From: Candidatus Gottesmanbacteria bacterium
GTDB taxonomy: Bacteria; Patescibacteriota; Microgenomatia; UBA10105; UBA927
Direction of reading: 5' to 3'
NCBI GenBank assembly: GCA_043798445.1
Contig: JAZDOQ010000007.1
Location: 4,437 to 68,436 of the forward strand
DNA: 64,000 nt
Each line of letters opens with the position of its first letter. Position 1 is the stretch's first letter. Below, piece by piece: positions 4,256 through 6,887 of the stretch. The position numbers were made by a program, and so were the translations under genes. Below the pieces are notes generated by a model. That model saw only the letters and a program-made list of their open reading frames with translations. It ran no database searches and was not told where the DNA came from.

Positions 4256-5256
4256 GAGCCGAGTACGCGTTGATAGGCAATGCTCGCAAGAGTTTCAACA
4301 AATTGGTCATAGGTCCATTTGAGTGTATAGACAGAGGCAAGCGTTGCATCTTCTTCGTCATAATAATTTAAACTTGGATTCATGTTGACGTCGACAATAT
4401 ATGGGATATTTTTGGAATCAATCCGAAAATCAAATCGTGCAATATCACGACAGGTAAATGTTGTATATGCTTTTATGGAAAGCTCCTGTATTTTTTCATG
4501 TAAACGCGGAGAAAGTTTTGCAGGAGAATCAACGCGTGCGTTCCAATATTCCCATGACTTTTTATCCCACTTGGCTTCATAGGTATAAATACTCCATTTC
4601 TTTTTAAACTTTTTCCCAAACCCGATTTCACAGTAGGGAAGTGTCATTATATTGTTATCATTTCCTAAAATAGTGACATGGATTTCTCTCCCTTTTATAT
4701 ATTTTTCAACGATAACTTCTCCGGGATATTGGGCTAAAATATATTGAACGCGCTCCGTAAGTTGTGAGAAATTGTTAACAACAGAATCTTGTGAGATACC
4801 GATTCCTGCGTGTTGATGAGATGGTTTTACAATTAGTGGATACGACAAACTACCAGTTGTAATTTTTGATCTTCGGTTAAAAATTTTGTATGGAGGAGTA
4901 CTGATATACCCTTGAGTCATTTTTCTTTTTACCCATGCTTTATTTGTTGCATACCGAAAACTCTTCATATCGTGTCCCACTTGTGTTCTTCCCAATTGTT
5001 CTAATCGGTGACCAACCTGTAGATATAACTTCCAGCTGTCATCTTCAACTAAATTAAATACCACATCCCCGGGAAGTTTTACCACTCGTCGCCAATTTTT
5101 TGGTGTCACCGCTATTTTTTTAACGACATGACCGCGTTTTCGGAGTGCTTCAGCTATTCCTTTGGCACATAATCTTGTATCCTCATCGTCATCTTTGGGT
5201 CCGTTGTAATAAAGAATGAGAGCAGATAACGATGTACGAAATGAAATTGGTTTCAT
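4252..5256 (-). CDS. ATP-grasp protein of the D-alanine--D-alanine ligase family
   Basis: LIVKPSHQHAGIGIS and EVIVEKYIKGREIHVTILG are consistent with a Ddl-like ATP-grasp fold. The exact substrate cannot be called. Confidence 0.6.
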   Translation of the reverse strand: MKPISFRTSLSALILYYNGPKDDDEDTRLCAKGIAEALRKRGHVVKKIAVTPKNWRRVVKLPGDVVFNLVEDDSWKLYLQVGHRLEQLGRTQVGHDMKSFRYATNKAWVKRKMTQGYISTPPYKIFNRRSKITTGSLSYPLIVKPSHQHAGIGISQDSVVNNFSQLTERVQYILAQYPGEVIVEKYIKGREIHVTILGNDNNIMTLPYCEIGFGKKFKKKWSIYTYEAKWDKKSWEYWNARVDSPAKLSPRLHEKIQELSIKAYTTFTCRDIARFDFRIDSKNIPYIVDVNMNPSLNYYDEEDATLASVYTLKWTYDQFVETLASIAYQRVLGS

Positions 5257-5348
5257 GAATAACGGGGCAGGTGTAAAGATTTAAAAAAATATTAGATTAT
5301 AATAAGTATATAGAATGAATAGAAGAATAACAATTATTAAATCAGCAG

Positions 5349-5421
5349 TCGGGATGTGCGGGCTCGGACCGCAGACCTCACGCACCCCATGCGTGCGTTC
5401 TACCAACTGAACTACATCCCG
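5349..5421 (-). tRNA. tRNA-Pro (anticodon GGG), 73 nt, no encoded CCA
   Basis: Hand-folded cloverleaf on the minus strand: CGGGATG-TA-GTTC-AGTTGGTA-GAAC-G-CACGC-ATGGGGT-GCGTG-AGGTC-TGCGG-TCCGAGC-CCGCA-CATCCCG-A. U33, G37 and G18G19 are present. The T-loop reads TCCGAGC, so position 55 is C. Confidence 0.85.
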
Positions 5422-5693
5422 ATTTTTGGTTTTACATTTTTCTTTTCTAACAAATTGACAATAAGAGATTTTATTTGTTTTCCAAAACCCGTTTTATAAA
5501 ATAATTCTCGTTTCCTCGCATCTTCTTTACAAATATATGTTTCAAAATATTTTAATTCAAATGGTCCATTTTGTTTTGTCCACGTGTTAGTTCCGTAATT
5601 GTGTTGATTCGTTCTGATAGTTGGTAGTATACTCGTTGATCCAATATATATATATCCATTTTTTAGACTTTTTAGAAAATATGTATAGAACAT
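5412..5693 (-). CDS. GIY-YIG (URI-domain) nuclease family protein, 93 aa
   Basis: YTYFLKSLKNGYIYIGSTS...RTNQHN...RELFYK fits the GIY-YIG core. Its last codons ATC GGG ATG TAG are the first 10 nt of tRNA-Pro. Confidence 0.8.
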   Translation of the reverse strand: MFYTYFLKSLKNGYIYIGSTSILPTIRTNQHNYGTNTWTKQNGPFELKYFETYICKEDARKRELFYKTGFGKQIKSLIVNLLEKKNVKPKIGM

Positions 5694-5698
5694 AAGTA

Positions 5699-5752
5699 TT
5701 CTACCAACTGTCAGCCAAAGGCTGATCGGCCCTTGGCCGAAACTACATCCCG
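5699..5752 (-). repeat. Exact copy of tRNA-Pro positions 1-24, interrupted by a 30-nt insertion (5711-5740)
   Basis: The minus strand reads CGGGATGTAGTT + TCGGCCAAGGGCCGATCAGCCTTTGGCTGA + CAGTTGGTAGAA. The two flanks are identical to the first 24 nt of the downstream tRNA. Confidence 0.85.
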
Positions 5753-5849
5753 TGTGATATATTGTATTCTACCATCCGCTGTGCAAAAATGGTATGAAGC
5801 TTCAGTCATATAAATTTATTAATTTTTGCCCGAAATAAAGGAGTTTCTT

Positions 5850-6887
5850 ATGCCAGTTGATGCAAAACTTCAAGCAGTCCGTCTTGCAATGGATCAGATT
5901 GAAAAACAATATGGGAAAGGTTCCATCATGCGGTTTGGAGAGAGGTCAACGGACAAATTAGCAATCGATGTTATTTCAACTGGTATTCTTCCGCTTGACT
6001 TGGCTCTTGGTGTTGGTGGACTCCCAAGAGGCAGGATTGTTGAGATATACGGTCCTGAAGCATCTGGAAAAACAACAGTCTGTTTGTCAGTTATTTCGGA
6101 AGCACAAAAATTAGGCGGAACGGCAGCATTTATCGACGCAGAACATGCACTTGATCCATTATGGGCGCAGACTTTGGGAGTAAAACTTGAGGATCTCCTT
6201 ATTTCTCAACCGGATTCAGGAGAACAGGCGCTTGAAATTGCTGAGACGCTAATTCGTAGCGGTGGTATCGATGTCATCGTTGTTGATTCTGTCGCAGCTC
6301 TTGTCCCGAGAGCTGAGCTCGAGGGAGATATCGGAGACAGCATGATCGGTGTACAAGCCCGGCTCATGTCGCAAGCACTCCGTAGGTTAACTTCGGTTAT
6401 CTCCAAGTCAAAAACGGTCGTGATGTTTACCAATCAACTCCGACAAAAAATTGGTGTCATGTTTGGAAATCCGGAAACAACACCTGGAGGACTGGCAATG
6501 AAATTCTATGCATCCGTCAGGCTTGATTCGAGGAAAATCGAATCCCTGAAAGATGGAGACAAAGTCATCGGAAGCCGTCACCGGATCCGTGTGGTGAAAA
6601 ACAAGGTGGCTCCACCGTTTAGGATTGCCGAATTTGATGTCATGCATGATGGTATTTCCAAAGAGGGAGCACTCATTGACGTGGGACTTGAATTTAACAT
6701 CCTTTCCAAGGCTGGAGCATTCATTAAGCATGGAGCTCAGATGTTAGGACAAGGTAAAGAAGCAACAAAAGCATTCTTTAGGGAAAATCCAAAAGTTTCC
6801 AAAGAAATCAGTGAAGCTATCTGGAAAATCGTTCGATCAGGATCTGTTCAAACAAAGGTCGTGGTCGGCGGTGAAGAAGCAGAATGA
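5850..6887 (+). CDS. recA: recombinase RecA
   Basis: ATG at 5850 follows an AAGGAG site. Contains the Walker A motif GPEASGKTT and [11 protein letters not shown]. Confidence 0.97.

Follow-up and report, generated by a model that had tools for sequence, protein, structure and literature searches.

A small GIY-YIG gene, a palindrome, and a duplicated tRNA segment: a probable homing-type element in a tRNA-Pro gene of Candidatus Gottesmanbacteria

Introduction

In the mitochondrial gene hybrids known as mobile open reading frame (mORF) hybrids, which have been described for the atp6, atp9, cox2, and nad3 genes of Glomus, an endonuclease open reading frame (ORF) is accompanied by a duplicated gene end, and the ORF in atp9 encodes a GIY-YIG enzyme (PMC3630166). 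The mORF insert in atp6 has no stop codon of its own and is in phase with the flanking sequence (PMC3630166), and the same article cites Paquin et al. (1994) for an atp6 mORF of Allomyces. Here we describe an arrangement reminiscent of these hybrids in a bacterial tRNA gene. The DNA under study, hereafter referred to as the window, is a stretch of 64 kb (40% G+C) from a Candidatus Gottesmanbacteria bacterium (assembly GCA_043798445.1, contig JAZDOQ010000007.1, positions 4,437 to 68,436). It encodes a protein with an identical counterpart annotated in a Candidatus Gottesmanbacteria genome, which places it in the Candidate Phyla Radiation. The element in question consists of a 93-residue GIY-YIG ORF, a 30-nucleotide (nt) palindromic insert, and a duplicated 24-nt segment of the tRNA-Pro(GGG) gene at which it resides.

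Common to the mORFs and the window element are a free-standing nuclease ORF together with a replacement gene end, the native end being left as a fragment, and a presence or absence that differs between close relatives. Whereas the mORFs reside in mitochondrial protein genes, however, the window element lies in a bacterial tRNA gene, and its family duplicates either the 5' or the 3' part. The nucleases of the family comprise only a catalytic domain of ~90 residues, a GC-rich palindrome is found in nearly every displaced copy, and the duplicated parts are usually identical, in contrast to the diverged foreign copies associated with mORFs.

Another relevant enzyme is SegB of phage T4, a GIY-YIG homing enzyme encoded within a tRNA gene cluster, which can drive the inheritance of the tRNA region (PMC2330249). 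The window ORF shares with SegB and I-TevI the GIY-YIG catalytic fold, a tRNA-gene neighborhood, and a spread that would proceed via break repair. Unlike the window ORF, the Seg and I-TevI enzymes exceed 200 residues and carry a DNA-binding domain, and their genes sit between genes with neither a tRNA-segment duplication nor a palindrome. Among proteins of solved structure, the UPF0213/COG2827 (YhbQ-like) and SLX1 proteins match the window ORF best in sequence, and they agree with it in size and in the Y..Y..R..H..E residues. No report of a tRNA linkage for the UPF0213 family was found in the literature searched.

For Allomyces mitochondrial DNA, double-hairpin elements were reportedly described by Paquin et al. 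in 2000. Like these elements, the repetitive extragenic palindromic (REP) sequences and their associated transposases (RAYT), and the Rickettsia palindromic elements, the palindrome of the window is of a short, GC-rich, scattered type with one or two hairpins that is sometimes tolerated within genes (for Allomyces, see the passages on these elements in PMC3787672). It bears no sequence relation to any of them and, unlike them, recurs systematically inside displaced tRNA copies that neighbor a GIY-YIG gene.

Finally, tRNA genes are well-known targets of larger insertions. Integrase islands and prophages are flanked by one complete and one partial tRNA copy; these inserts span 9-120 kb, encode a tyrosine or serine recombinase, and usually repeat the 3' part of the tRNA (PMC9897764). 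Group I introns are frequent in the tRNA genes of Patescibacteria, and the article that reports them mentions neither GIY-YIG proteins nor hairpins (PMC13011429). In the literature searched, no prior description was found of GIY-YIG/UPF0213 genes situated in bacterial tRNA genes with palindrome-interrupted duplications. This agrees with an initial annotation of the window, made from the sequence alone, whose author was likewise unaware of one, and the large family presented below is apparently undescribed before.

Results

All features of the locus lie on the minus strand and were read accordingly. The intact tRNA-Pro(GGG) gene extends over positions 5349-5421, as indicated by ARAGORN (5348-5421) and by Rfam model RF00005 (56.9 bits, E = 3e-11). 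Its first nucleotides double as the end of the GIY-YIG ORF (5412-5693), which begins with the ATG at 5693 and terminates with the TAG at 5414-5412. The final codons, ATC GGG ATG TAG, correspond to tRNA-Pro nt 1-10, stop included. Located upstream of the ORF is a displaced copy of the 5' portion of the tRNA, composed of nt 1-12 (CGGGATGTAGTT, positions 5741-5752, an exact repeat of 5410-5421) and nt 13-24 (CAGTTGGTAGAA, positions 5699-5710, an exact repeat of 5398-5409). Wedged between these two 12-mers is the 30-nt insert, hereafter referred to as the double-hairpin element (DHE, 5711-5740). When the insert, which splits the copy 12 + 12, is removed, the copy matches tRNA-Pro nt 1-24 at 24/24 positions. 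The second 12-mer is followed by TAC, the beginning of a 5-nt leader, TACTT (5694-5698), that precedes the ATG. Two such ordered 12-mer repeats inside 750 nt are far beyond chance expectation, and the unbroken tRNA 24-mer occurs just once in the 64 kb even when three mismatches are allowed. The initial annotation had recognized the ORF, the tRNA, and the interrupted copy; the ORF call, Pfam, ARAGORN, Rfam, and the exactness of both 12-mer repeats bear it out.

recA adjoins tRNA-Pro(GGG) in several Microgenomates, and the contigs encoding the closest RecA proteins, namely L044, L047/L048, and L049 (92, 92, and 85% identity; L numbers are our locus designations), were taken for comparison. In all of them recA and its neighbors are kept, and L044 additionally contains the window's L13-S9 and ATP-grasp genes. 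The intergenic DNA on the recA side leads directly into an uninterrupted tRNA-Pro(GGG) gene, and both window flanks are retained, the upstream one aligning as far as tRNA +1 (59/73 identical in L047). At this recA-linked tRNA in the three relatives there is no ORF, no partial tRNA copy, and no hairpin. The extra DNA in the window, as aligned with L044, L047, and L049, amounts to 331 bp (5422-5752), and since it is absent from three relatives with the same synteny, it represents an insertion polymorphism. Presence and absence at a single homologous site among close relatives is a feature expected of a free-standing homing endonuclease gene.

The interrupted fragment is joined to the native promoter flank and the intact tRNA to the native 3' flank. 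The initial annotation had proposed an insertion of roughly 330 bp that rebuilt the 5' part of the tRNA and left the original fragment displaced upstream, with empty sites in relatives that would not have kept the partial copy; each of these expectations agrees with the comparison. Its placement of the insertion at tRNA position 24/25 is one of many equivalent choices: the 24-nt repeat lets the boundaries slide by as much as 24 nt, and any other point within nt 1-24 would fit equally well. An ORF inserted together with a duplicated gene end, with the native fragment left behind, is the arrangement that defines the mORFs. In this regard, the view that such a footprint is expected of homing in general was overstated, for target duplication marks the special mORF or gene-hybrid type.

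Upstream of the insertion lies the motif TGGTAGAATAC (5764-5774), which the initial annotation had placed 7 nt away, at 5781-5771, and had counted as part of the footprint. Its counterpart in L044, L047, and L049 is the promoter element TGGTAGAATACAA (TGATAGAATACAA in L044), 13-24 nt upstream of the tRNA. Because it is conserved in the empty sites, TGGTAGAATAC is the extended -10 of the resident tRNA-Pro promoter, and the idea that it is a third tRNA remnant was rejected. A second occurrence of TGGTAGAATAC is found at 5706-5696, where the D-loop fragment and the leader together recreate TGGTAGAAT; this motif resembles a -10 element, ends 4 nt upstream of the ATG, and may serve as a promoter. 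A scan of the locus region for consensus promoters and terminators gave a result no better than shuffled sequences.

It is exceedingly improbable that the insert has an ordinary cause, be it an integrase-island remnant, a group I intron, or an error of assembly. A partial tRNA duplication is admittedly the classic mark of an integrase island (PMC9897764), and Patescibacteria often have group I introns in their tRNA genes (PMC13011429). The entire insert is only 331 bp, however, with a nuclease as its one gene and no integrase or other recombinase, and the duplication is at the 5' end of the tRNA. The tRNA itself is uninterrupted, with no structured intron RNA, and over positions 4800-6300 Rfam gives the tRNA only, apart from chance miRNA-type matches at E ≤ 10. 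Finally, the same architecture was assembled independently in dozens of samples.

To place the ORF in context, relatives were sought in one genome per species using a query alignment of nine sequences, a set of 15 being too diverse. The scan yielded 40 genome loci, all on contigs resembling those of the Candidate Phyla Radiation (CPR), with ORFs 49-75% identical barring a few distant or truncated matches. In 32 of the 40, ARAGORN identified a tRNA on the strand of the ORF and no more than 36 nt away from it (binomial P = 3e-25 at a generous chance rate of 10%); in the remaining eight, tRNA-derived sequence abuts the ORF or the locus is cut by contig ends or gaps. The association with tRNAs and partial duplications suggested in the initial annotation is thus borne out for the clade of the window ORF. 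It is specific to that clade, since another GIY-YIG subfamily is not tRNA-adjacent. The latter is represented by a 101-residue protein with a weak TIGR01453-like match, encoded downstream of rny in two of the empty-site relatives (L047:5715-6020 and L048:5724-6029, minus strand); no tRNA is seen beside its gene in loci that stop 18 nt upstream of the gene start. No second GIY-YIG gene was found in the window.

Two layouts can be distinguished. In the first, which is that of the window, tRNA nt 1 to ~26 split by a DHE are followed by ~10 A/T-rich nt, the ORF, and the intact tRNA. The ORF stops exactly 10 nt into the tRNA in nine loci and the window, at the TAG provided by the conserved U8-A9-G10, and 23 nt into it, at a D-loop TAG, in eight loci. 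The second layout is the mirror image: an intact tRNA, 0-3 nt, an ORF whose 3' end lies in tRNA nt 8-17, a DHE, and tRNA nt 18-76. Here the ATG lies 0-3 nt past the tRNA 3' end (seven loci), and the duplicated segment is nt 8-76, as compared with nt 1-24 in the window. An attempt to unify the layouts by viewing the leader of the first as a tRNA 3'-end remnant was abandoned, for the sequences show no resemblance. In a tree of the ORFs the two layouts occupy largely separate clades, with the host tRNAs (Pro, Val, Ala, Asp, Ile, and Arg) interleaved. Further pairs of ORF and tRNA, involving Asn, Tyr, Trp, and Ser, were encountered among loci fetched for other purposes, bringing the number of host isotypes to at least ten. 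More distant clades follow this plan as well. In four Bacteroidota-type loci, a near-full-length copy of tRNA-Arg(CCT) with a palindrome in its T-loop precedes the ORF and an intact tRNA-Arg. This palindrome, CCCTGCCTGCCGGCAGGCAGGG, is 22 nt in length and unrelated to the DHE. In L144, an ORF and tRNA-Arg(TCT) are preceded by a fragment with this palindrome in its D-loop.

Once the palindrome is removed, most displaced copies are 100% identical to the adjoining tRNA (24/24, 26/26, 66/66, 67/67, and 68/68), which indicates recent or repeated events. An exception is provided by L032, where a second tRNA-Val copy has different stems, a divergence consistent with a foreign allele; copies at L015, L016, L022, and L033 are diverged or differently compensated to a lesser degree. 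Various stages of growth and decay are also represented. The element at L019 is present as tandem copies, the unit consisting of the ORF, the hairpins, tRNA-Ala nt 18-76, and a 71-nt spacer, and two identical units are situated behind an intact tRNA-Ala(TGC) (L019:2492-3186). Extra interrupted tRNA fragments occur at L013, L029, and L014, ORF-less remnants in which a fragment with its hairpin precedes a tRNA at L071, L103, and L148, and a fresh pseudogene with a single stop at L042.

The palindrome of the window is composed of two perfect hairpins, HP1 (TCGGCCaagGGCCGA, 5740-5726) and HP2 (TCAGCCtttGGCTGA, 5725-5711), each with a 6-bp stem and a 3-nt loop. The DHE consensus is TCNGCC-NNN-GGCNGA twice, the first loop being A-rich and the second T-rich. 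Among 39 distinct copies the stems covary as two hairpins, with 65 double-sided change cells, a number reached in 0/500 shuffles; although these copies were gathered with a hairpin filter, the covarying outer positions fall outside the core pattern by which the same sites are found independently. A single long palindrome or dimer site was ruled out for the 30-mer since pairing of half to half is no better than in shuffled sequences. The initial annotation had noted the presence of the insert correctly but treated it as anonymous; it is instead a conserved double hairpin and a near-obligatory part of the system. A palindrome is present in the displaced tRNA copy at ~36 of 41 ORF loci, only about one of the 41 (L027) being without a palindrome, and the palindromes are clade-specific. 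Within tRNA copies, DHEs are always inserted after TT or YT, at 8/9, 12/13, 17/18, or 55/56. In the orthologous loci L010 and L017, whose flank and ORF are 90% identical, the DHE lies at 17/18 versus 8/9, the stems are compensated differently, and the leaders differ, such that this part of the locus must turn over quickly.

An unbiased scan with the DHE pattern revealed at least 127 sites in at least 120 metagenome loci. Among the matches listed, the ORF is present within 600 nt at only 8 of 127 sites, and a tRNA within 700 nt at 23, which disposes of the notion that the hairpin pair is exclusive to GIY-YIG loci. The implication is one-way: nearly every ORF locus has a palindrome, and most palindromes are without an ORF. 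As a conserved hairpin unit in many unrelated contexts, the DHE qualifies as a palindromic repeat. It is widespread in low- to mid-GC environmental genomes (L050-L198, e.g., L065:1637, L137:4911/6099, and L154:491), is often flanked as ttt|..|aaa, and at times occupies a larger hairpin's loop. Some variants are open in all frames (TCCGCC..., which reads SAKGGSASGG) and may lie inside coding regions, and some matches in high-GC viral sequences resemble chance or coding matches. Sites for CCCTGCCTGCCGGCAGGCAGGG were observed at L042:2445-2466, L199:1463-1484, L200:1412-1433 and 1461-1482, L201:1510-1531, and L144:6003-6024 and 6708-6729, and additionally at L111:1619, L186:12676, L202, and L203. 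It also occurs solo in other contexts, including genomes that contain the double hairpin as well.

These distributions bear on two other explanations. According to the first, a homing-type ORF inserted itself and the palindromes are unrelated selfish repeats favoring T-rich sites in tRNA loops, which survive only in the dispensable displaced copy given that hits in functional tRNAs are lethal. Such secondary colonization is in accord with the independent spread of the DHE over the metagenome loci, its ttt|..|aaa flanks, and its sometimes in-frame position in coding sequence, with the uniform insertion after TT or YT, and with the several DHEs found within one displaced copy at L001, L028, and L014. 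It is nevertheless considered unlikely. At 40% GC, TT is too common to explain how the sole DHE of the window came to hit the 24-nt fragment (the core pattern has no other match in the 64 kb), and how this was repeated at ~36 independent loci. In addition, even the "young" or freshly homogenized copies, 100% identical to their tRNAs, already carry the palindrome, which must therefore have arrived with the element or immediately afterward; this argues against slow colonization.

In the second explanation the GIY-YIG protein and the palindrome are partners. The protein would be structure-specific, with the hairpin or cruciform of the palindrome as its substrate; ORF and palindrome together would constitute an autonomous unit, and the solo palindromes would be non-autonomous copies, as REPs are to RAYT or miniature inverted-repeat transposable elements to a transposon. 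A cut at a palindrome within tRNA homology would generate recombinogenic ends, and "ends-in" integration would duplicate the tRNA segment automatically. In agreement with this, each clade has its palindrome in the displaced tRNA copy, the palindromes being unrelated between clades, the copies that bear them are ~100% identical to the tRNA, the only DHE of the window sits in the 24-nt fragment, and the stems covary. After UPF0213, moreover, the nearest characterized relatives of the protein are the SLX1 structure-specific endonucleases, and the different DHE positions in L010 and L017 suggest that the DHE is actively relocated. The paucity of ORFs near DHE sites noted above speaks against such a partnership, as does the lack of tRNA-like flanks at most of them. 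There is also no proliferation of the DHE in the genome of the window, as judged by the one copy in 64 kb; the palindrome lies on only one side of the ORF, so that there are no paired ends; and simple gap repair by ends-in integration should erase a palindrome at the break. On balance, the partnership is regarded as rather unlikely.

With respect to the protein, the window ORF matches the Pfam GIY-YIG family (PF01541) over residues 1-72 with an E-value of 5.2e-12 (46.3 bits, cut-off 22.6), and no NCBIfam model reaches its threshold. In an alignment of 15 relatives, Tyr 5, Tyr 16, Arg 27, His 31, Asn 32, and Glu 63 are invariant, and Gly 18 is nearly so. By analogy with I-TevI, we take the conserved tyrosine, arginine, histidine, and glutamate residues to be catalytic. 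A profile search against solved structures aligned the whole length of the protein with the UPF0213 proteins BH0048 (1zg2, E = 3.7e-12) and EF2693 (1ywl, E = 2.7e-10), followed by SLX1 chains; I-TevI (1mk0) was weakly detected in the same search (E = 0.005). The protein conforms to the domain-only UPF0213/SLX1-like type of 80-100 residues with a URI/GIY-YIG domain alone. Its C-terminal tail is variable and is encoded in part by the tRNA itself. An exact-protein look-up of the window ORF and of P0001 returned no record.

Pairs of closely to moderately related ORFs display ratios of nonsynonymous to synonymous substitution (dN/dS) of 0.08-0.29, and hence the ORF is under purifying selection. Such selection would also be expected of a nuclease beneficial to the host, one that guards against palindrome insertions or acts in repair and is kept beside a tRNA for co-expression, the duplications being by-products of rearrangement. 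The tight co-orientation and transcriptional fusion of the ORF with tRNAs fit this picture, and UPF0213 proteins elsewhere are encoded by ordinary chromosomal genes. Yet the closest relatives lack the ORF with no visible compensation, the ORFs are distributed over at least ten tRNA isotypes with a mixed phylogeny, pseudogenes, tandem copies, and ORF-less remnants exist, and the ORF lacks a stop codon of its own. A host function is accordingly thought to be very unlikely.

Several additional features of the locus and its relatives deserve comment. A 20-nt inverted repeat (5714-5695 and 5633-5614, 18/20 complementary, equaled in 0/100 shuffles) encloses the start codon. One arm (5695-5714) runs from the end of HP2 across tRNA nt 13-24 into the leader, and the other (5614-5633) lies inside the ORF at codons 21-27. 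In the predicted RNA fold the AUG is buried within the resulting stem (z = -4.95). The repeat could be a translational control or the scar of a template switch; as a family trait it was rejected, for only the window and L023, with a similar repeat, have one. The T-loop of the intact tRNA-Pro(GGG) (5362-5368) reads TCCGAGC, with a C at position 55, where U is near-universal, and the tRNA-Val adjoining the element at L016 (2181-2255) has TCCGAGT. The corresponding loops of the empty-site relatives are TTCAAGT or TTCAACT. Loss of the TT, which precedes T-loop hairpin insertions, may be protective or a sign of relaxed constraint.

Some of the tRNA copies are troublesome for annotation software. 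At L030:2414-2499, a tRNA-Pro(TGG) with an 11-nt internal duplication was mis-called as tRNA-Cys; at L001:3265-3390, tRNA finders missed a copy resembling tRNA-Pro(GGG) whose D-loop and T-loop each hold a hairpin pair; and at L032:1863-1932, a hairpin-headed partial tRNA-Val was reported as a tRNA. Contig ends or runs of N fall exactly at the elements in L013, L017, L025, L030, L036, L039, L041, L043, and many of the P0136-P0165 contigs, which are shorter than 3 kb. The tRNA repeats therefore seem to disrupt assembly from short reads; L036 and L043 resemble two halves of one locus. Several of the CPR-like element contigs L004, L010, L014, L017, L021, L024, and L029 are labelled "uncultured Gammaproteobacteria," "Pseudomonadales," or "Bdellovibrionales," probably as a result of mis-binning or mis-labelling. 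A phage-type integrase gene (L200:2108-3232) is located ~300 nt downstream of the element-hosting tRNA-Arg(CCT) of that locus, and this tRNA may double as an attachment site for an integrase.

Discussion

The explanation that we consider probable is that the window contains a selfish tRNA-gene element of the homing type, mORF-like in its construction and spread by its own nuclease. The initial annotation had likewise envisaged that a selfish nuclease gene of minimal size had entered a tRNA gene, and both the empty sites and the family-wide pattern lend support to that proposal. The element would consist of a cassette of ~275 nt, namely a few A/T-rich leader bases and an ORF without its own stop, a GC-rich palindrome, and a duplicated tRNA segment. 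One complete tRNA would be rebuilt on one side, in this case downstream, out of nt 1-24 and the resident nt 25-73, and the other duplicated segment, bearing the palindrome, would stay on the native promoter.

Transcription of the ORF would begin at the promoter of the tRNA itself, reading through from fragment to ORF to tRNA in the first layout, and the -10 mimic derived from the D-loop may add to its expression. Translation would require little or no leader and would terminate at the U8-A9-G10 TAG of the tRNA. In the second layout, 3' processing of the tRNA would leave an almost leaderless message. The SLX1/UPF0213-like nuclease is envisioned to break an unoccupied tRNA gene, in or beside it, and the break would be repaired from an occupied copy, with the tRNA sequence providing the homology. 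Conversely, recombination between the tRNA repeats would delete the element precisely and regenerate an empty site. Such a cycle of gain and loss is suggested by the identical repeats, the intact ORFs maintained by selection, the tandem copies at L019, the pseudogene at L042, the ORF-less remnants, and the empty sites, all of which fit it.

Several observations weigh against this selfish homing-type element. At 93 residues, the protein amounts to a catalytic domain alone and leaves no space for a DNA-binding domain of the kind found in I-TevI and the Seg enzymes. Were the nuclease to recognize a site within the tRNA, that site would also be present in the rebuilt tRNA, which would still be cleavable, such that immunity is unexplained. 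As the 24-nt copies of the window are identical, a foreign origin of either one cannot be shown. More distant relatives (L005, L006, L008, and L018) have the element at the same recA-linked tRNA, and given these, the pattern of presence and absence could reflect loss rather than gain. The classical homing scheme, in addition, gives the near-universal palindrome no role. Lastly, a search of the viral contigs of IMG/VR gave no relatives of the window ORF, and carriage by phages was rejected on these grounds.

The lack of a role for the palindrome in classical homing may be accommodated by a broader proposal, which is possible but doubtful. The loci may represent a bacterial mobile element of a new class. 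Its nuclease, SLX1-like and domain-only, would have no sequence-reading domain and would act via a cognate GC-rich palindrome. The hairpin or cruciform formed by the palindrome within a stretch of tRNA-derived homology would be cut. The ends would then enter tRNA genes, which combine conservation and self-complementarity with high transcription, and part of the tRNA would be duplicated in the process. Each clade would have its own palindrome, and the solo palindromes, which number in the thousands in CPR and other genomes, would be non-autonomous progeny of the element. If the palindrome is indeed the handle of the nuclease, the pair would constitute a structure-guided DNA-targeting system.

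If the selfish homing-type reading is true, no smaller autonomous mobile unit would be known from bacteria, the element having ~330 bp and one protein of ~90 residues. It would also assign a first function to one branch of the UPF0213/SLX1-like GIY-YIG proteins, which are widespread but uncharacterized. How a bare GIY-YIG domain finds its target is a question that is tractable in vitro. There are practical consequences for annotation as well: tRNA fragments and hairpin-interrupted pseudo-tRNAs are missed or mis-called, as at L001, L030, and L032, and assemblies break at tRNA genes. For the CPR bacteria themselves, the family would mean that the tRNA genes of their streamlined genomes are invaded by nuclease elements, beyond the group I introns and integrase islands already known from such genes.

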